A stretch of DNA of 64,000 nt from Acidimicrobiia bacterium. Its GTDB lineage: Bacteria; Actinomycetota; Acidimicrobiia; Spongiisociales; UBA5794. The stretch spans positions 6,785 to 70,784 of the forward strand of contig JALSQW010000019.1 of NCBI GenBank assembly GCA_026985095.1, given 5' to 3'. This document shows, one piece after another, positions 2,656 through 59,413 of the stretch (positions are counted from its first letter, which is position 1; each line of letters begins with the position of its first letter). A program made the position numbers and the translations under genes. Under the pieces are notes generated by a model that saw only the letters and a list, made by a program, of their open reading frames with translations, was not told the DNA's origin and made no database searches.

Positions 2656-3219
2656 TCAGGAGCGGCCGAGGAGACGCCGCAACCACCCGACCACGGTGGC
2701 CCACAGGCTGGACAGGAACAGCGAGATGCCGCGGACTTCGGCCGCGGCCACGGCAGCCGCCTCGGCGGGCGTCTCGGCGGCCAGCTTCGCCTCGAGGCAG
2801 TGGACGAACTCGTCGATGAGCCGGCGGGACATCTCCTTGATCAGCCCCGTTCGCCCGAACTGGGCGGCGGCACCCGACAGCGCCACGTCGGCGACCACGT
2901 CGACGCGGGCGCCGCCGTCGACCGGGACGATGGTGTAGGTCATCTGCACCCTGCCCTGGCTCCCGCCGCGCCGATCGACGCCCTTGCCGCTGACGGTCCC
3001 GGTGCGCGACTCGTCGTCGGTCTCGACGATCGCCTCCCCCTCGAAGGTCGCCGACATCGGACCGAGCTTGGCGGTCACCTTCCCGCGATAGGCTCCCGTC
3101 TCGGTCGTCCCGAGGAGCTCCGCCCCCGGCAGGCATGCCGCCAACCCGGGGACGTCCTCGAACGCCTGCCACACCGCATCGACGTCCTGGCCGACGGTGA
3201 AGGACTCTTCGATCTTCAT
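2656..3219 (-). CDS. coxG: CoxG-like SRPBCC (carbon monoxide dehydrogenase subunit G) family protein
   Basis: The region MKIEESFTVGQDVDAVWQAFEDVPGLAACLPGAEL...GKVTAKLGPM...GEA matches the CoxG/SRPBCC family. I chose the internal ATG at 3219, which sits behind a GAGGAGGG Shine-Dalgarno, rather than the 5' extension in the track. Confidence 0.8.
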   Translation of the reverse strand: MKIEESFTVGQDVDAVWQAFEDVPGLAACLPGAELLGTTETGAYRGKVTAKLGPMSATFEGEAIVETDDESRTGTVSGKGVDRRGGSQGRVQMTYTIVPVDGGARVDVVADVALSGAAAQFGRTGLIKEMSRRLIDEFVHCLEAKLAAETPAEAAAVAAAEVRGISLFLSSLWATVVGWLRRLLGRS

Positions 3220-3232
3220 GCAACCGCCCTCC

Positions 3233-4021
3233 TCATTCGGTCCCCGCCTCCTCCCCGCGCTGGCGATGGATCCTCCCTTCCACGCCGCGCAGCGGCTCAC
3301 CGGTCCCGTGCCCGTACCTGACCTTGATCATCTCGGCGAGGATCGCGATGGCGGTCTCGGCAGGGGTCTCAGCTCCGATGTCGATCCCGATCGGTCCGTG
3401 GATCCGCTCGAGCTGTTCCTCGGACCATCCTCGACCGCGAAGCCGCTCCAGGCGGGCTCGGTGGGTCCGTCGCGATCCCATCGCGCCGATGTAGCGCACC
3501 GGGACGTCCCGGATCGCGGCGAAGACGGGTTCTTCGAAGCGGGCGTCGTGGCTCAGCAGGGCGACGTAGGTCCTCCGATCCGGCGGGAAGGCCTCGAGGA
3601 CGACGTCGGGCCAACCGACGATGAGGTGGTCCACCTCCGGGAACCGCTCGGCGGTGGCCCACGCCGCCCGGGCGTCTCCGACCACGACCCTGAACCCGGC
3701 CTCCTTGGCCATCCGTGACAGCGGTTGCGTGATGTGACCGGCACCGAACGCCAGCAGCACGGGGGGCGGAGCGACCGTCTCGATGAACACCCGGGTGTCG
3801 CCGTAGTCGAGGGCCCGGGACCGCTCGTGGTCCATGAGCTCGCCCGCATCGGCCAGAACGTCGTCGGCGATGTCCGCCGGCAGCTTCCCAGCGACGACCC
3901 CCGCGTCGGCATCCACGACCGCCTTGGTCCCGGTATCGGGACCGGCGATGACGGTGACCAGGGCGCCGAGGCGCTCATCGTCGGCGAGACGACGGACGGC
4001 ATCGAGGATCGGGTTCACCAT
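3233..4021 (-). CDS. XdhC/CoxI-family molybdoenzyme maturation accessory protein (both N and Rossmann C domains present)
   Basis: 262 aa. The N-terminal [20 protein letters not shown]...[13 protein letters not shown] and C-terminal [29 protein letters not shown]...[10 protein letters not shown] regions match the XdhC_CoxI and XdhC_C domains. Confidence 0.8.
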
Positions 4022-4323
4022 CGCTCGATGTAGATCTCGATGGTCCCACCGCAGGTGAGGCCGACCTCGAAGGCCTCGTCGTCGGCGATGCCGTAGGTGA
4101 CGAGCCGGGGCTCGTCGTCGGCGAGGACGGCCTCGGCGTGGAGGGCGACGTCGTTCTCGACGCAGCCGCCGCTCACCGATCCCTCCATCTCACCGGCGGA
4201 CGAGACGAGCAGCTTGGAGCCTTCGGGGCGGGGCGCGGATCCCTTGACCGACACGACGGTGGCCACCGCCACGTCCTTGCCCTCGCTCCGCCACCGGTCG
4301 TAGATCTCGAGCACGTCCCTCAT
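4015..4323 (-). CDS. XdhC/CoxI N-terminal-domain-only protein (small accessory protein)
   Basis: [60 protein letters not shown] matches the XdhC_CoxI N-domain. I used the internal ATG at 4323. Its stop overlaps the downstream XdhC start (ATGGTGA). Confidence 0.65.
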
Positions 4324-4390
4324 GTCCCAGACTCTAGTTCTCACCCGCCGCCGCCGCCCACGGTGGCACCACCGCCGAACCGTGGGCCGG

Positions 4391-4538
4391 CCACACCCCT
4401 CCAGGGGGTTCCCCAACCCAGGGTTCACCACACCCCTCCAGGGGGTTCCCCAACCCAGGGTTCACCACACCCCTCCAGGGGGTTCTCCAACCCAGGGTTC
4501 ACCACACCCCTTCAGGGGGGTCCCCAACCCAGGGTTCG
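4391..4538. repeat. Four tandem copies of a 37-bp unit (CCACACCCCTCCAGGGGGTTCCCCAACCCAGGGTTCA). Each unit contains two short palindromes (CCCCT-CC-AGGGG and AACCC-A-GGGTT).
   Basis: Direct reading: units at 4391-4427, 4428-4464, 4465-4501 (one C to T change) and 4502-4538 (degenerate). The array lies in the divergent intergenic region between the XdhC-N gene and the membrane protein gene at 4627. Confidence 0.85.
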
Positions 4539-4626
4539 CGGAGACGGTGCGGCGGTGGGGAACCGACTCGCCGTCGGCGGCGAGGCGGTTCATCATGCAG
4601 GAACCCGATCACACGAGGAGCCTGAC

Positions 4627-5355
4627 GTGAGCCGCGATCTCGTTCACTTCCTTCCGCTCGTCACCACGACGCTGTCCGTCCTGTTCGGCATCGTCCTGTT
4701 CCGCCACTGGCGGCGCAAGCCCCAGGCGACCTACCTGATGTGGTGGACCCTCGGGGTCGTCGTCTACGGGCTCGGCACCCTCAGCGAGAGCCTCACCTCG
4801 ATCAACGGCTGGAGCGAACCGGTCTTCCGGATGTGGTACATCACCGGTGCGCTGATGGGTGGCGTGTTCCTCGCCCAAGGAACCGTCTACCTCCTCCTCC
4901 GGCGCGCGACCGCCGACCGGTGGTCCAAGATCCTGGTCGCCTACCTCACCGTCGCCTCCGTGATGGTGCTGCTGACCCCGATCGACATGAGTGCGGTCGA
5001 GCCCTTCCGCCTCTCCGGCAAGGTCATGGAATGGCAGTGGGTACGGCTGTTCTCACCCTTCGTCAACACCTACGCCCTCTTCTGGCTCGTCGGTGGCGCC
5101 ATCTGGTCGGCCATCCGGTACTTCCGCCGCAGCACCGGAACGGCCCGACGGGTCTGGGGCAACGCGATCATCGCCGTCGGAGCGCTCCTCCCAGGCATCG
5201 GCGGGTCGTTCGCCAGGTTCGGTCGCGTCGAGGTGCTCTACGTCACCGAGCTGATCGGTCTCGCCCTGATCTGGGCCGGCTACCGCATGATCGTCACCGA
5301 CCGTACCCCCAGCATCCACGAAGCGCAGGTGTCAGCCGGCGAGATCACCGGCTGA
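4627..5355 (+). CDS. Hypothetical polytopic membrane protein (about 6 predicted TM helices)
   Basis: GTG start behind a GGAGG Shine-Dalgarno. The protein is rich in hydrophobic segments (LVTTTLSVLFGIVLF, MWWTLGVVVYGLGTL, WYITGALMGGVFLAQG and others). I recognised no family. The upstream 5' part of the track ORF is a shadow frame. Confidence 0.55.
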   Translation: MSRDLVHFLPLVTTTLSVLFGIVLFRHWRRKPQATYLMWWTLGVVVYGLGTLSESLTSINGWSEPVFRMWYITGALMGGVFLAQGTVYLLLRRATADRWSKILVAYLTVASVMVLLTPIDMSAVEPFRLSGKVMEWQWVRLFSPFVNTYALFWLVGGAIWSAIRYFRRSTGTARRVWGNAIIAVGALLPGIGGSFARFGRVEVLYVTELIGLALIWAGYRMIVTDRTPSIHEAQVSAGEITG

Positions 5356-24389: not shown

Positions 24390-26759
24390 ATGCCAGACCT
24401 CTTCCTCGGAGGGCCGGTCGACCCCACGACGGGCGACCGGATCGACAACGAACGACTCCTCTACGACGCCTCGGACCTGACGACCCACGGGGTGATCGTC
24501 GGGATGACCGGATCGGGCAAGACCGGCCTCGGGGTGATCTTCCTCGAGGAGGCGCTGAGGGCCGGCATCCCCACCCTCGTCCTCGATCCCAAAGGTGACA
24601 TGACGAACCTGGCGCTGCGGTTCCCCTCCCTGGCTCCCGAGGACTTCGAGCCGTGGATCGATCCCGCGGTCACCGCCGACGCGGGCACCACCGTGGTGGA
24701 ACTGGCGACCGAGACGGCCCGACGCTGGCGCGACGGTCTCGCCTCGTGGGGGCTGTCGGAGGACGACATCGCCGAGCTCGACCGCTCCTCGGAGGTGACG
24801 ATCTACACGCCCGGATCGTCCGCCGGCGTTCCGCTCGACATCGTCGGTAGGCTCGACGTCCCCGACCTCGACTGGGAGACCGACGGAGAGACGATCCGCG
24901 ACGAGATCCAGGGGTTCGCCTCCGGCCTTCTCGGGCTCATCGGGATCGACGCGGACCCGGTCACGTCCCGGGAGCACATCTTGATCTCGAACCTGGTCGA
25001 GCGTGCGTGGAGAGACGGCCGGTCCCTCGATATGGCCACGCTGTTGGGATGGATCCAGCGTCCGCCGATGCGCAAGCTCGGCGTGTTCGACGTCGATGCG
25101 TTCTTCCCTCCCGACGATCGGATGGAGCTCGCCATGCGCCTCAACGGCCTCCTCGCCTCACCGGGCTTCGCCACCTGGATGGAAGGCGAACCGCTCGACA
25201 TCCAACGGCTCTTGTGGGACGGCGAGGGACGACCCAAGGCAGCCGTCGTCTACCTCGCCCACCTGACCGAGGAGGAGCGTCAGTTCGTCGTCACCTCGGT
25301 CCTGACCAAGGTCGTCACCTGGATGCGTTCCCAAAGCGGCACCGGCGAGCTGCGAGCTCTCGTGTACATGGACGAGGTGTTCGGGTTCGTCCCTCCGACG
25401 GCGATGCCGCCGGCCAAGAAGCCCATCCTGACGCTCCTCAAGCAAGCACGTGCCTTCGGGGTGGGCCTGTTGCTGTCCACCCAGAACCCCGTCGACCTCG
25501 ACTACAAGGCCATGTCCAACGCCGGCACCTGGGCCATCGGGAGGCTGCAGACCGAACGTGACAAGGCCCGGATCCTCGAGGCGCTCCGTTCGGCCGGCGG
25601 CGACGTCGATGTCGAGGAACTCGACGCGCAGATCACGGGTCTCGGGAAGCGACGGTTCCTCCTCCACGACGTCCACGAACCCGCGCCCGTCCCGTTCACG
25701 ACCCGCTGGGCGATGTCGTACCTCCGAGGGCCGCTGACGAAGGATCAGATCGAGACGCTCACGGCCCGTCGTCGGCCATCGAACGACGCGGGGCGTCGAA
25801 CGCCGCGACGAACCCAGCCCGCGACCTCGACGCTGCCCGACGACGTCGTCCCCGCCATGCCCCCGATCGCCGACGGGATCCCGGTCGCCTTCGTCGACGC
25901 GGCCGCGCCCTGGGCACAAGAACTCGGTGCCGATCCGACCTCCCACGTCTGGGAGGCGGGACTGGCGGCACGGGTGACCGTCCGCTACGACGAACGACGA
26001 GCCGACATCGATCACGTCGAGGAATGGGAGGCCATCTACTTCCCCGCCCCCGAGCCGTTCGACGCCTCGTCCGGCATCGAGGTGGACTACGACGAACGGG
26101 ATCTCCAGAAGGAGGCGCCGCCCGAGGCCGGCTACCGACTGCCTGCCGCCCCCGTCGACGATCCCTCGTACTTCCGAGACGCGAAGAAGGCCATCGCCGC
26201 GTTCCTCCGGCGGGAATCCACCCTCGAGATCCTCCACAACGCCGCGCTCAAGCTCTGGTCCCGACCGGGGGAGGATCTCACCGGCTTCCAGGCACGGTGC
26301 GTCGCGGTGGCCGAGGACCGGATCGACGAGGAGCTCGCCAAGCTCAGAGACCGGTACGCGACGAAGGTCAAGACCTTGCAGCGGAGGCTCCGGCGCGCCC
26401 AACAGCGTGCCGCCACCGCCGAGGAAGCGGCGGAGGCTTCCCGTCAGGAGGAGCTGATGGGCCAGGCCGGAGCCGTCGTCGACCTCCTGCTGGGTCGTCG
26501 GCCCCGCCGGTCGGTGGCCGCCCGCTCGCGCAGCCGTCGCAGCGCCATCGCTCGCGCCGAAGCAGCCCAGGAGAAGGTCCTCGACGTTCAGGAGGACCTG
26601 GCCGATCTGGAGGCCGATCTGGCCGACGACGTCGAAGAGATCACCGACCGGTGGATGGCACGAGCAGCCGAGATCGAATCGGTGGACATCGGACTGGAGT
26701 CCGATGACATCGACGTCCGAGAGCTCCGGGTCGTCTGGGTTCCGGTCCCGGTGGATTGA
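24390..26759 (+). CDS. FtsK/HerA-superfamily P-loop ATPase (DUF87/HerA-like central domain) with long coiled-coil C-terminal region
   Basis: Walker A GMTGSGKTG, Walker B LVYMDEVFGF, and an LLSTQNPVDLD motif that resembles the ATQRP motif of HerA/FtsK/VirB4 ATPases. The C-terminal third is Ala/Glu/Arg-rich and predicted coiled-coil. Confidence 0.7.
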   Translation: MPDLFLGGPVDPTTGDRIDNERLLYDASDLTTHGVIVGMTGSGKTGLGVIFLEEALRAGIPTLVLDPKGDMTNLALRFPSLAPEDFEPWIDPAVTADAGTTVVELATETARRWRDGLASWGLSEDDIAELDRSSEVTIYTPGSSAGVPLDIVGRLDVPDLDWETDGETIRDEIQGFASGLLGLIGIDADPVTSREHILISNLVERAWRDGRSLDMATLLGWIQRPPMRKLGVFDVDAFFPPDDRMELAMRLNGLLASPGFATWMEGEPLDIQRLLWDGEGRPKAAVVYLAHLTEEERQFVVTSVLTKVVTWMRSQSGTGELRALVYMDEVFGFVPPTAMPPAKKPILTLLKQARAFGVGLLLSTQNPVDLDYKAMSNAGTWAIGRLQTERDKARILEALRSAGGDVDVEELDAQITGLGKRRFLLHDVHEPAPVPFTTRWAMSYLRGPLTKDQIETLTARRRPSNDAGRRTPRRTQPATSTLPDDVVPAMPPIADGIPVAFVDAAAPWAQELGADPTSHVWEAGLAARVTVRYDERRADIDHVEEWEAIYFPAPEPFDASSGIEVDYDERDLQKEAPPEAGYRLPAAPVDDPSYFRDAKKAIAAFLRRESTLEILHNAALKLWSRPGEDLTGFQARCVAVAEDRIDEELAKLRDRYATKVKTLQRRLRRAQQRAATAEEAAEASRQEELMGQAGAVVDLLLGRRPRRSVAARSRSRRSAIARAEAAQEKVLDVQEDLADLEADLADDVEEITDRWMARAAEIESVDIGLESDDIDVRELRVVWVPVPVD

Positions 26760-26796
26760 CCGGCACCGCGCCCCGGCGCGCGGTAGCCTGCCGCTC

Positions 26797-27180
26797 ATGA
26801 ACGACAGGCCGGCGATCGTCAGCATCCAAGGCAGCGAGGTCGACGGTGACACCGTGGTCACCGTCACGCTGAGCTGGCAGGACGAGGAGTGCACCGGCGA
26901 AGCGGTCGGCCCGACGGACCCGACGACCCTCCCTCGGCTCGTCGGCGAAGCGACCCTCCGAGCCGTCGAGCGGGTCGCTCACGGGAACATCCGCCTCGAC
27001 CTGACGGCCGTCGCGACCACGCAGCTCGGCGACGCCCAGGTGGCGATGGCGCAAGTCGAGATGGAGGGAGACGAGGGACGTTTCGTCGGCAGCGCGATCC
27101 TCGATGGCACCGACTCGGCGGCAGCGACCGTCAAGGCGGTTCTCGATGCGATCAATCGTCGACTGGAACGGATCCTCTGA
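26797..27180 (+). CDS. Tandem DUF1876-like (Rv2632c-like) small protein
   Basis: Two repeats resemble the DUF1876 pattern (L.W...G...VG.G.A.LDP...A...A...): VTVTLSWQDEECTGEAVGPTDPTTLPRLVGEATLRAVERV and AQVEMEGDEGRFVGSAILDGTDSAAATVKAVLDAINRRL. This is a recollection-based family call. Start at the internal ATG 26797. Confidence 0.5.
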   Translation: MNDRPAIVSIQGSEVDGDTVVTVTLSWQDEECTGEAVGPTDPTTLPRLVGEATLRAVERVAHGNIRLDLTAVATTQLGDAQVAMAQVEMEGDEGRFVGSAILDGTDSAAATVKAVLDAINRRLERIL

Positions 27181-27228
27181 GTCGGCCGGCGGCGATCGAA
27201 GACCGCCCGACGAGGCGCGGGCCCGCCT

Positions 27229-27603
27229 TCAGGACCCGTTGGTCAACGCCCAGAGGAGATCTCGGACGTCGACGATCCCGAGGAGTTCATCGGCGGTCAT
27301 CACCGGAAGATGCCGGTAGCCCGCTTCGAGCATCCACTGGGCGGCCTCGGCAACGCGCACGTCGGGTGCCATGACGTCGGGCGCCTCGCTCATCCAATCC
27401 TGAACCATCTCTCCGGAGGCGTCGTCGGCTTCGGCCAGGGCCCGGGTCAGATCGCGGTCGGTGAGGATGCCGACCATCTCGCGGTCGGCGACCACGGCGA
27501 CGGCCGAGACGTCGCGATCGAGCATGAGCGCGGCCGCGTCCGCCAGGCAGGTCTCGGGACCGACCACCTCCGTGGCGCCGCCGACCAGCGATTCCAACCT
27601 CAC
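27229..27603 (-). CDS. CBS-domain pair protein
   Basis: 124 aa with two CBS motifs (VSAVAVVADREMVGILTDRDL and HLPVMTADELLGIVDVRDLL). Confidence 0.8.
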   Translation of the reverse strand: MRLESLVGGATEVVGPETCLADAAALMLDRDVSAVAVVADREMVGILTDRDLTRALAEADDASGEMVQDWMSEAPDVMAPDVRVAEAAQWMLEAGYRHLPVMTADELLGIVDVRDLLWALTNGS

Positions 27604-27669
27604 CTCACACCTCCCAACAGCAGGCTACCCGCCCCGCACGACCTCGGACCAGGGGCCGAAGGTCCCGCC

Positions 27670-27745
27670 CACCCGCCGTGACCCGCCAACCCAGGGTTCG
27701 CCACCCCCCTAAAGGGGGTTCTGCAACCCAGGGTTCGGGGATCGC
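27670..27745. repeat. Dispersed copy (about 1.5 units) of the same double-palindrome element seen at 4391-4538
   Basis: AACCCAGGGTTCGCCACCCCCCTAAAGGGGGTTCTGCAACCCAGGGTTCGGGG shares the AACCCAGGGTTC and CCCCYYMAGGGGGTTC modules and their order with the 37-bp unit. It lies between the sigma factor 3' end and the CBS gene start. Confidence 0.7.
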
Positions 27746-27746
27746 C

Positions 27747-28796
27747 TCAGACGAGGTCCTGTTCGCGGATGCCGAAGCTCGGATGGCGGAGACGGCACAA
27801 CGCGAGCTTCTCGAGCTGACGGATCCGTTCCCGCGTGAGGTTGAACTCCTCGCCGATCTCCTCGAGCGTCCTCGGCACCCCGTCGTAGAACCCGTACCGC
27901 AGCGCCAGGATCCGACCCTCCCGCTCGGGAAGCCGCTCGATCGAGATGCGGAGGCTGTTGGCGATGTCCATCTCCTCGGTCACCTTGACCGGATCGACCG
28001 CGTCCTCGTCCTCGATGAAATCACCGAGCTGGGCACCATCCTCACCGATCGGCTGCTCCAACGACACGGTGTCGGCCACACCGAGGGCGAGCTCCACCTT
28101 GGCCACCTCGACGCCCGCCTCCTCGGCGATCTCCTCCGGCTTGGGATCGCGACCGAGTTCCGCCTTGAGACTGGCCTGAGCAGCTCGCACCGCCGCCAGC
28201 GTGTCGTGGAGATGCACGGGGATGCGAACGGTCCGGGACTTGTCGGCGATGGCCCGAGTGATCGCCTGACGGATCCACCACGTGGCGTACGTCGAGAACT
28301 TGAACCCCTTGCGCCAATCGAACTTCTCGACCGCCCGGATCAACCCCAGGTTCCCCTCCTGGATGAGATCGAGGAAATCGATCCCGGAGGTGTTGGCGTA
28401 ACGACGAGCATTGGCCACCACGAGGCGCAGGTTGGCGGTGAGGAAGGCATCCTTCGCCTCCTGGCCACGCCTGACCTGGCGGCGCAGGGCGATCTCCTCC
28501 GCCTTGCCCTGGTACTCGCCCGCATCGAGCTTCTCCTGGGCACGTTGACCGCCCTCGATCTTCTGGGCGTACTCGACCTCCTTCTCGGCGGTCAGCAGCT
28601 CGTACTCGCCGATCGCCGTCAGGTACTGGCTGACCAGGTCGGTGGTGAGCCTGCCACGGTCGTCGGTGAGCTTGTTGCGGTCCCGATCACGTCGGGTCCG
28701 GGTCAGCGTGTCCCGCTCGATCCGTTCCTTGGCTTCCTCCCGTTCGCGCTGCGCGCGAGTCACCACCGCCTTGCGCGGCTTTCCCACTGACGCCAT
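27747..28796 (-). CDS. RNA polymerase sigma-70 factor, group 1/2 (RpoD/SigA-SigB-like)
   Basis: Regions 1.2 to 4 are present: region 2 [30 protein letters not shown] and region 4 [25 protein letters not shown] used the internal ATG at 28796 behind a GGAGG Shine-Dalgarno. Confidence 0.85.
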
Positions 28797-29024
28797 GTAC
28801 GAGTCCTCCAGCGAAGGTTTCCGAACCACCAGCCCCCGATCCCGTACGGGGCGGGACACGAGCGCACCCCACTATCACATACGACGGGCCGTTTGTGAAC
28901 CCCCTGATTTCCCAGGAGGCAGCGAGGTCGCCAGCCTATCGGCGGGAACCAGGTAGCCGCAGCCGACCACCACACCGCCACACATCCACTCAACCGGCCG
29001 AGATCCCCGACCGATGAGCATCGG

Positions 29025-39941: not shown

Positions 39942-39993
39942 CAGACACCGGTACCGTGGGACGATGACAGACACCGGTACCGTGGGACGATGA
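39942..39993 (+). repeat. Perfect 26-bp tandem duplication (CAGACACCGGTACCGTGGGACGATGA x2) overlapping the start codon of the downstream gene
   Basis: Read directly. Copy 2 contains the annotated ATG (39990). Copy 1 supplies an upstream ATG (39964) that opens a 9-codon uORF ending in TGA at 39991-39993, overlapping the main ATG (ATGA). Confidence 0.8.
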
Positions 39994-59317: not shown

Positions 59318-59413
59318 CGCGGAGGTGGACGGGAATCGAACCCGCCAGGGCACATGCGCACCCTCACCGGTTTTGAAGACCGGGGGACCCACCAGGCGTC
59401 CGGACACCTCCGC
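59318..59413 (-). tRNA. selC: Candidate selenocysteine tRNA (tRNA-Sec, anticodon UCA), about 95 nt with long variable arm
   Basis: Hand fold of the minus strand: GCGGAGGTG...CACCTCCGC forms a perfect 8-9 bp acceptor stem. Anticodon stem CCGGT/ACCGG with loop CTTCAAA (U33, anticodon TCA, A37). 7-bp variable-arm hairpin AGGGTGC-GCAT-GTGCCCT. T-arm GGCGGG-TTCGATT-CCCGTC. Discriminator G, no encoded CCA. The D-arm folds only as a 4-bp stem by hand, so the call needs software confirmation. Confidence 0.6.

Follow-up and report, generated by a model that had tools for sequence, protein, structure and literature searches.

A dispersed palindromic repeat family of Acidimicrobiia and a Vsr-type nuclease gene flanked by its units

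A stretch of 64,000 nt from an Acidimicrobiia bacterium (contig JALSQW010000019.1, positions 6,785 to 70,784 of the forward strand), referred to here as the window and also contained in a 179,672-bp metagenome contig (ENA ERZ27262647), harbors a tandem array of four 37-nt units at positions 4391 to 4537. Each unit comprises an 11-bp palindrome, AACCCAGGGTT (motif A), and a segment of approximately 25 nt separating it from the next one (segment B). The array belongs to a dispersed palindromic repeat family that is characteristic of Acidimicrobiia. It is probably a gene-less copy of a family similar to repetitive extragenic palindromes (REP) and bacterial interspersed mosaic elements (BIME), the partner of which would be an AbiEi-Vsr nuclease and not the REP-associated tyrosine transposase (RAYT).

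The tandem array in the window

The array is located between the start codons of two divergently oriented genes, at distances of 68 nt and 90 nt, which is the setting reported in the preliminary description of this DNA. Its left end carries a terminal variant of A, designated A* (AGCCCACGGTT), in reverse orientation (A*rc). The features of this locus and of a second one in the window are listed below; the two genes flank the array and are not part of it.

4015-4323, minus strand: XdhC_CoxI-type gene (PF02625, ATG at 4323), the first of a cox/xdh-like operon
4356..4366, plus strand: A* remnant GCCCACGGTGG, inner-end variant of A, inverted relative to 4378-4388 and forming a 9-bp hairpin with it in the RNA fold
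4377..4390, plus strand: A*rc, GAACCGTGGGCCGG, terminal variant motif at the left array end, 37 nt before the first A
4391..4537, plus strand: four 37-nt B-A units (Tandem Repeats Finder, motif counts, 85-95% identical arrays at approximately 26 other loci)
4415-4425, 4452-4462, 4489-4499 and 4526-4536, plus strand: the four A motifs, AACCCAGGGTT (motif count)
Within 4391..4537, plus strand: segment B, CACCACACCCCTCCAGGGGGTTCCCC, with the core hairpin ACCCC-TCCA-GGGGT (Tandem Repeats Finder, motif counts)
4627-5355, plus strand: gene of a conserved 242-aa membrane protein (GTG at 4627; 3969 homologs, with P0001 being identical)
27688..27735, plus strand: minimal element A-B-A, with A at 27688-27698 and 27725-27735 and B, CGCCACCCCCCTAAAGGGGGTTCTGC, at 27699-27724

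For positions 4391-4537, Tandem Repeats Finder returned a period of 37 with 4.0 copies, 96% matches, no indels and a score of 273. The consensus, CCACACCCCTCCAGGGGGTTCCCCAACCCAGGGTTCA, is identical to the one described earlier, and the fourth unit, CCCCTTCAGGGGGGTCCCC, which had been called degenerate, differs from it by three substitutions. Motif A occurs six times in the window (4415, 4452, 4489, 4526, 27688 and 27725) and nowhere else in it. Including near-palindromic matches on the opposite strand, 12 matches were counted versus 0.35 expected, a number reached by none of 100 shuffles of the window. The second palindrome ascribed to each unit, CCCCTNNAGGGGGTT, was likewise found at the same two loci only, save two weak matches, and repeat clustering of the window placed both loci in a single family. 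A diverged copy of A, AACCGTGGGCC, is present at 4378-4388, exactly one period (37 nt) left of the first A, so that the element starts at approximately 4377 rather than at 4391. This copy corresponds to A* in reverse orientation. Together with the A* remnant it forms a junction of A*, 10 nt and A*rc, which contains no gene and is followed by the four B-A units. The left array end is also present in the assembly of a second sample (L002, SRR7968113), which breaks inside the array.

The related copy approximately 23 kb away was recovered where it had been reported, at the 3' end of a sigma-70 gene and upstream of a gene encoding a CBS-domain protein, both on the minus strand. Its start lies 11 nt past the stop codon of sigma-70 (27747-27749, minus strand), and 84 nt separate its end from the CBS start at 27603. 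A CRISPR array, already rejected in the preliminary description, does not fit the data: the conserved motif measures 11 nt, shorter than CRISPR repeats of 23-55 nt, the 25-nt intervals between the palindromes are mutual copies (96% within the window array) and not unique spacers, and dozens of small arrays are found per genome.

A widespread repeat family in Acidimicrobiia

One genome per GTDB species was scanned with the pattern AACCCAGGGTT-N24-28-AACCCAGGGTT. The architecture of two A motifs spaced by 35-37 nt was found in at least 102 stretches; among the matches listed, 100 derive from 43 metagenome-assembled genomes (MAGs) labelled Acidimicrobiia, Acidimicrobiaceae or Actinomycetota. A match in a Burkholderiales MAG (L080) was left out of the family by its taxon label alone, and one in a Rubritalea MAG (L097) was dismissed because an AT-rich array of approximately 37 copies of a 37-nt unit matches the 11-mer pattern there by chance. 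The latter array (L097, 2995-4374), the unit of which contains AACCCAGGGTT and around which no genes were called, has no relation to the Acidimicrobiia repeats and is possibly satellite DNA of a contaminant on a contig binned as Rubritalea. A genome scan with GGGGGTTCNNCAACCCAGGGTTC, a pattern too specific for the B type of the window, gave 0 matches. Metagenomes scanned for the A-B junction of the window yielded 35 loci, many as arrays of 2-5; in the metagenome Ga0256841, approximately 26 unlinked arrays of 2-5 units with 37-nt spacing were found on 15 contigs (1.56 Mb). When the window was compared to all fetched loci by BLASTN, identity (85-95%) was limited to the array, while the flanks were unrelated. 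Only one match was obtained among the viral contigs of IMG/VR, which argues that the family is not phage-borne. The family is thus real and widespread, as the preliminary description had suggested in proposing a small intergenic repeat family of the REP type, and further copies are abundant in relatives of the window organism.

Across the family, A is an invariant 11-bp palindrome, AACCCWGGGTT, always flanked by C or G (S-AACCCWGGGTT-S), and looks like a protein-recognition site. The distance from one A to the next is 36 nt (152 cases), 37 nt (93) or 35 nt (20), and the minimal element A-B-A measures 47 nt. Arrays contain one to seven A motifs, most commonly two (57 arrays), three (41) or four (31), and grow and shrink by gain and loss of 36-37-nt units. 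The B segments differ among genomes and are alike within one. In 202 distinct B sequences, positions 6-10 were Watson-Crick paired in 54-85% compared to 26% in shuffles, while the outer six positions were not (15-47%, near the 26% of the shuffles). B is therefore a short hairpin of changing sequence and A a fixed sequence, and folding of A-B-A into a single long hairpin was rejected on the same grounds.

About one quarter of the arrays end one B-length past the last A in the variant motif A*, for which the consensus C-AGCCCACGGTTCG was derived from 43 array ends; it was found at 14% of array sides versus 2.5% in the background. In reverse orientation, it flanks arrays in L004, L011, L102, L107, L134 and L135 and adjoins the nuclease gene described below in several of the loci L145-L152. 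Compound units were observed in L063 (7131-7393), L009, L057, L060, L065 and L074, where two A motifs enclose an A*rc, GAACYGTGGGCTGG, and the central base of A frequently changes from A to T. Such units have the appearance of nested insertions or of a head-to-head fusion of two arrays, and the 108-nt compound unit of L063 is present in duplicate. A single A is also found within a longer palindrome with G/C runs, GGGGGGGTGGG-AACCCAGGGTT-CCCCACCCCCC, in L108 (5593), L132 (12100), L139 (2473), L105, L120, L122 and L136. These contigs are of different composition, and the matches may represent a different hairpin or terminator element sharing the core 11-mer.

Orthologous arrays were identified by matching of flanks between species. 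In the JALVQZ MAG and the organism of Ga0256841, four orthologous arrays with flanks of 88-91% identity have retained their position and all A motifs, and one pair shares even the pattern of the A central bases. The unit counts differ (3 vs 5 and 3 vs 4). The B segments of these orthologous arrays are only 63-75% alike, compared to 80-83% for B segments from different loci of the same genome. The units are thus homogenised within a genome while A stays constant between genomes (concerted evolution), a pattern typical of sequence populations under active maintenance.

A nuclease gene between the repeats

The 1059 proteins called in the fetched loci (1.06 Mb, array-seeded) were clustered. All four members of one family of approximately 300 aa are encoded next to arrays, and three of them are among the only eight of the 1059 genes flanked by arrays on both sides. 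As an independent test, the protein database was searched with one member (593 matches), and seven homologs (45-74% identity) were taken by the length of the surrounding contig and identity alone; all seven carry A, or A with one mismatch, on both sides of the gene. Altogether, repeats on both sides were found at 11 of 11 loci, seven of which were chosen independently. At most of these loci, the repeats form inverted A-B-A* arms. The layout is clear in L145, L147, L148, L149 and L152, where 5'-A-B-A* is followed by 60-110 nt, the open reading frame (ORF) and A*rc-B'-A-3', the two arms being inverted copies. The B type of the arms is that of the respective genome (window type in L135, JALVQZ type in L145). 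L135 and L145 share flanking sequence and are therefore orthologous loci, and synteny between L147 and L148 as well as between L149 and L150 suggests vertical inheritance. The junction of the window array, with A* and A*rc separated by 10 nt, looks like a gene-less version of this gene-bearing unit.

The protein consists of the Pfam domains AbiEi_4 and DUF559/MTES_1575 and was assigned to AbiEi by PADLOC (E=1.6e-21). Vsr, DUF559 and the homing endonuclease I-Bth0305I form one PD-(D/E)xK clade (PMC3424549), and the MTES_1575 domain has been classed as a Vsr-type restriction endonuclease (PMC3710099). The conserved catalytic acidic and histidine residues of this fold are present, with D233, E244, D246 and H251 being invariant in 30 homologs. 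The AlphaFold2 model reached a predicted local distance difference test (pLDDT) score of 92 with an alignment and 37 with the single sequence. No gene for an AbiEii toxin or nucleotidyltransferase was found next to the nuclease gene in the seven annotated loci (L145-L150 and L152), and a type IV toxin-antitoxin system of the AbiE type was rejected, even though the AbiEi module is present. A Dcm-type methyltransferase gene was not found beside it in these loci either; six of the seven have no methyltransferase gene at all next to it, and L152 encodes an unrelated methyltransferase of the small-molecule type two genes away. The nuclease differs in both respects from the members of the Vsr/DUF559/I-Bth0305I clade and from AbiEi antitoxins. 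In Vsr-Dcm very-short-patch repair, which acts on T:G mismatches, the nuclease is paired with a cytosine methyltransferase specific for CCWGG. The centre of A is CCWGG, the Dcm/Vsr site of E. coli, which is a lead only.

In L149 and L150 (1-4930), the nuclease gene is located between the genes of a CBS-domain protein and a DUF87/HerA-like ATPase, just after a sigma-70/CBS pair. In the window (24390-28859), the corresponding sigma-70, CBS and DUF87 genes are present, but the position of the nuclease gene is taken by a small unrelated ORF (26797-27180), and the minimal A-B-A element lies between sigma-70 and CBS. Several further observations were made at the nuclease loci. In L145 (2301-3110), an insertion sequence element (rve integrase, HTH_32) follows directly after the right arm (A*rc-B), where the outer A is expected. 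In L152, two A-B-A* modules upstream of the nuclease gene (1545-2000) enclose genes for tRNA-Leu and tRNA-Lys, and a tRNA-Pro gene (3031-3105) follows the right arm (all identified with ARAGORN), placing repeats and nuclease in a tRNA-rich region. Short contigs among the nuclease homologs were dismissed as a sign of assembly breaks at repeats, since the unrelated 242-aa membrane protein has a similar share of contigs of approximately 1 kb.

The association of nuclease gene and repeats is well supported, and from it we infer that the nuclease is the partner maintaining the repeats. In the mechanism proposed, the AbiEi module would bind the A and A* palindromes and the Vsr-like domain would nick or cut nearby; during repair of the break or recombination, units would be copied from one array to another and less often to new sites, and unequal exchange would alter the copy number. 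Cleavage followed by repair copying would account for both homogenisation and dispersal of the units. In its full form the proposal is a tentative one, although we consider it a serious possibility: Acidimicrobiia would have a second, RAYT-independent partnership of repeat and enzyme, in which a resident endonuclease with an AbiEi winged helix-turn-helix (wHTH) module and a Vsr fold recognises the CCWGG-centred 11-bp palindrome, spreads and homogenises hundreds of A-B units by cleavage and repair, and has its own gene placed between inverted A-B-A* arms.

Several points weigh against this interpretation. The binding of A and A* by the nuclease and its role in the spreading of units are inferred solely from co-location, and causality may be reversed, with a selfish nuclease gene homing into pre-existing arrays. 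The nuclease gene is absent from the 64 kb of the window and from L001. The right-hand array of L135 is direct and not inverted, and L146 is devoid of a clear upstream A*, so that inverted arms are the rule and not a law. The census loci were seeded with exact A motifs, which inflates the apparent invariance of A, and some genomes (L146-L148) use variants of A with one mismatch. Copies per genome are estimates only: approximately 38 non-seed arrays in 1.06 Mb correspond to about one per 28 kb, and the window contains two per 64 kb. Furthermore, B of the window is of the Ga0256841 type (83%) and not of the JALVQZ type (65%), although JALVQZ is much closer to Ga0256841 and the genes of the window organism are only approximately 65-72% identical in DNA sequence to those of both relatives; the B type therefore does not simply follow host relatedness. 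Finally, units are placed a few nt after stop codons without target-site duplication.

Placement of the arrays and alternative explanations

Genes around the arrays were called with a codon model trained on the annotated genes of L001, 19 of 19 of which it reproduced. No gene call was overlapped by 149 of 169 arrays. Of the flanking gene pairs, 73 were co-directional, 43 convergent and 12 divergent, compared to 608, 150 and 132 background intergenic regions, respectively (convergent vs divergent: odds ratio 4.0, p=3.6e-5). The first A follows the stop codon at a median distance of 17 nt (mode 7-15 nt), while the median distance to a start codon is 81 nt, and in co-directional spacers the array was closer to the upstream stop in 55 cases and to the downstream start in 17 (p=8e-6). 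The orientation of the array (A- vs T-centred) showed no bias with respect to the direction of the upstream gene (115 vs 132). The second locus of the window, close to the sigma-70 stop codon, is therefore typical of the family; the main array is one of the few (9%) located in divergent spacers. A target-site duplication was not detected, the mean longest k-mer shared by the flanks being 3.42 versus 3.38 +/- 0.08 by chance. As the outer A is palindromic, which makes inverted ends trivial, and no target-site duplication was found, a miniature inverted-repeat transposable element (MITE) was rejected; of the REP/MITE-like label given in the preliminary description, the dispersed family resembling REP and BIME stands, while neither a MITE nor a REP-RAYT system in the strict sense, with its sequence tag and RAYT partner, applies.

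This placement would also fit if the arrays were mainly functional structures of 3' untranslated regions (3'-UTRs), i.e. factor-independent or factor-dependent terminators or barriers to 3'-exonucleases that stabilise mRNA, selected by the host and only incidentally linked to the nuclease. A 3'-exonuclease barrier stabilising mRNA is a role proposed for E. coli REPs. The short distance to stop codons, the enrichment in convergent and co-directional spacers, and the greater proximity to stops than to the next start all agree with such a role; either orientation would work, as expected of palindromes, the B hairpin is kept despite its sequence change, and arrays persist at orthologous sites across species. 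RNA-level signals point the other way. An intrinsic (Rho-independent) terminator was rejected, as at least five T within 12 nt past the array were found in only 2 of 72 co-directional cases, and the region 4200-4750 of the window contains no terminator-like site. An RNA-specific signature in the transcribed orientation was not detected (34 G-U pairs vs 27 A-C pairs). RNA structure prediction for the window array, an analysis suggested in the preliminary description, gave the 9-bp A*/A*rc hairpin, but the fold as a whole was only 2.2 standard deviations better than shuffles. No Rfam family was matched at the array at gathering thresholds, the sole match in the window being a tRNA-Sec gene (59321-59411), and a permissive search of 4250-4700 gave only chance-level matches (E >=0.089) with scores far under the gathering thresholds. 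Moreover, structure alone does not explain the strict invariance of the A 11-mer, the 1-nt centre of which allows no hairpin loop; the main array of the window and 11 others lie in divergent spacers, which contain no 3' end of a gene, and the bracketing of the nuclease gene at 11 of 11 loci is unaccounted for. We therefore consider a predominant 3'-UTR function unlikely, while such a role is compatible with nuclease-maintained repeats as a secondary, host-level effect.

Somewhat less probable still is selfish behaviour of the nuclease gene as a homing-type element with pre-existing arrays as its target, into which it would insert between A* and A*rc, the arrays being made and spread by other means. 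The position of the gene between these two motifs fits this explanation, and the gene-less A*-10 nt-A*rc junction of the window resembles an unoccupied site. In contrast, related species have the gene at conserved syntenic positions (L135/L145, L147/L148 and L149/L150), which speaks for vertical inheritance rather than for frequent homing, a single copy was found per sampled genome, and the arms are of the genome-specific B type, as predicted for long co-residence. The origin and homogenisation of the arrays would also be left unexplained.

The preliminary description had further considered a reiterated operator for a dimeric regulator. At the main locus, this would be the operator of a local transcription factor controlling the divergent xdhC/cox operon, the membrane protein gene or both, in line with the location of the array between the two start codons, the perfect short palindromes at a fixed phase of the repeat, and the equal orientation of both window copies upstream of minus-strand genes. 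Among the homologs of the membrane protein, P0002 is the closest (81% amino acid identity). Its gene lies in L140 in conserved synteny, between xdhC_N and the CoxE/VWA and AAA genes, but the spacer in L140 is 135 nt long, compared to 303 nt in the window, and contains no A motif. The A motifs are also absent from the loci of more distant homologs (L141-L144), which argues against an ancestral operator of the cox/xdh promoter. Two anchors are common to the spacers of the window and L140: CCCAGACTCTAG beside the xdhC start and the palindrome CCGACTCGCCGTCGG upstream of the membrane protein gene. The approximately 200 nt between them are found in the window only, and alignment to the empty site of L140 revealed no duplication. 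The main array is thus an insertion of about 200 nt and not an ancestral operator, and the comparison with the closest syntenic relative gives a difference in presence and absence. In addition, no promoter-like consensus was found in the region, and units of the identical type lie beside dozens of unrelated genes, mainly at their 3' ends. A local operator is accordingly very improbable; the part of the earlier suggestion that holds is a possible protein-recognition site, considering the invariant 11-bp palindrome and the flanked winged-helix nuclease gene. Most likely, the array at the cox/xdh locus is a tolerated insertion between the promoter-proximal region of xdhC and the conserved palindrome upstream of the membrane protein gene. 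That the array arose by strand slippage at this site alone, and resembles the copy at 27.7 kb by chance, would be in line with the near-identical head-to-tail units but is refuted by the 12 motif matches in the window versus 0.35 expected and by hundreds of related arrays across 43 MAGs and metagenomes.

Both anchors have features of their own. On the minus strand, CCCAGACTCTAG (4326-4337) reads CTAGAGTCTGGG and is shared with L140 as the 5' region of xdhC. It contains TAGAGT, similar to a -10 hexamer, only 8 nt before the ATG of xdhC_N in the window, which suggests that the xdhC transcript is leaderless or has a very short leader. As the repeat insertion starts immediately upstream of CCCAGACTCTAG, any -35 region of xdhC would be inserted DNA. 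The palindrome CCGACTCGCCGTCGG (4563-4577), approximately 50 nt upstream of the membrane protein start, lies in 18 nt identical in the ortholog of L140, and CCGACT-N5-GTCG(G) is found upstream of the homologous genes in L141-L144 despite different neighbours. It may be an operator or leader element of the membrane protein gene itself.

Two observations elsewhere in the window concern neither the repeats nor the nuclease. Use of selenocysteine by this Acidimicrobiia organism is indicated by the tRNA-Sec gene (minus strand, RF01852, 73.6 bits). At 39942-39993, at or just before an ORF start, two tandem copies of a 26-bp sequence, CAGACACCGGTACCGTGGGACGATGA, are 100% identical and could represent a real recent duplication or an assembly artefact.

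Relation to known repeat systems

The model of a partnership between repeat and enzyme is given by the 'REPtrons' of Proteobacteria, in which REP or REPIN elements are associated with RAYT (PMC3116915, PMC3733652, PMC5581495). The Acidimicrobiia family resembles them in its short imperfect palindromes, which are present in high copy number in intergenic regions, often 3' of genes, and as single, paired or arrayed copies; units of 36-37 nt, with 149 of 169 arrays outside of gene calls, correspond to the description of REPs as short (20-40 nt), almost exclusively extragenic palindromes with tens to hundreds of copies per genome. It is also similar in that sequence populations become uniform inside each genome and are retained at orthologous positions, and in that the gene of the partner enzyme is flanked by repeats, apparently single-copy and syntenic in related species. 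In REPs, a tetranucleotide GTAG (or CGTC) is conserved at one end of the palindrome (PMC3733652). Such a tag is lacking in the Acidimicrobiia units: GTAG was found in 44 of 270 units (16%) and CGTC in 30 of 270 (11%), with no fixed position, and the sequence logo of A shows only S at -1 and +11. Further differences are the two alternating palindromes per unit, one of them invariant across many species, the host phylum Actinomycetota, and the flanked gene, encoding an AbiEi-wHTH and Vsr-fold PD-(D/E)xK nuclease and not a HUH/Y1 transposase. A phmmer search with E. coli YafM and IS200 TnpA against the six-frame ORFs of the 1.06 Mb around arrays gave no match, which is a weak negative.

Other mosaic repeats show partial similarity. 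The BIMEs of E. coli are mosaics of palindromic units and linkers with variable tandem copy number, which are extragenic, located largely after stop codons and bound by gyrase, IHF and Pol I. They share with the Acidimicrobiia arrays the alternation of palindromes with short linker motifs, tandem amplification to variable copy number and the extragenic position. In contrast to BIME units, which alternate in orientation (Y/Z), the units described here are direct tandem copies; there is no sequence similarity, and no protein binding is known for them. Closest in architecture are the neisserial intergenic mosaic elements (NIMEs), in which RS units of 50-150 bp, heterogeneous within an array, are bounded by the 20-bp palindrome dRS3. 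Here, too, a conserved palindrome is reiterated (dRS3 corresponding to A) with variable segments between the copies (RS corresponding to B), dispersed over intergenic regions. The RS units are longer and heterogeneous, and the enzyme acting on dRS3 is an IS110/Piv-type recombinase of filamentous prophages and not a Vsr-like nuclease. The pneumococcal BOX elements (boxA-[boxB]n-boxC), for which no partner enzyme is known, are similarly modular and intergenic, with strong folding potential and an internal module of approximately 40 nt in variable tandem number between distinct terminal modules (compare A*). Their two ends differ from each other, and a sequence relation to the Acidimicrobiia units is lacking.

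Acidimicrobiia are a class known mostly from metagenomes. Full-text literature searches retrieved no paper with the motif AACCCWGGGTT in a bacterial context and none on REPs in Acidimicrobiia, and literature mentioning DUF559 or MTES_1575 gave no link of the AbiEi-DUF559 fusion to dispersed repeats; the family is apparently undescribed. For practical purposes, the arrays break short-read assemblies, as in L002, which ends inside one, and could be used as strain markers, given that close relatives differ in copy number. Insertion into promoter regions is also possible, as seen at the main locus of the window. REP-type repeats rank with the most abundant non-coding features that bacterial genomes have, and their biology is understood almost wholly from Proteobacteria with a domesticated HUH transposase, RAYT. 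If the nuclease is the partner of the Acidimicrobiia repeats, the invariant AACCCWGGGTT would represent a defined biochemical substrate, and the AbiEi-DUF559 fusion proteins common in Actinobacteria would be given a first, testable function. The REP lifestyle would then have evolved at least twice, with unrelated enzymes.

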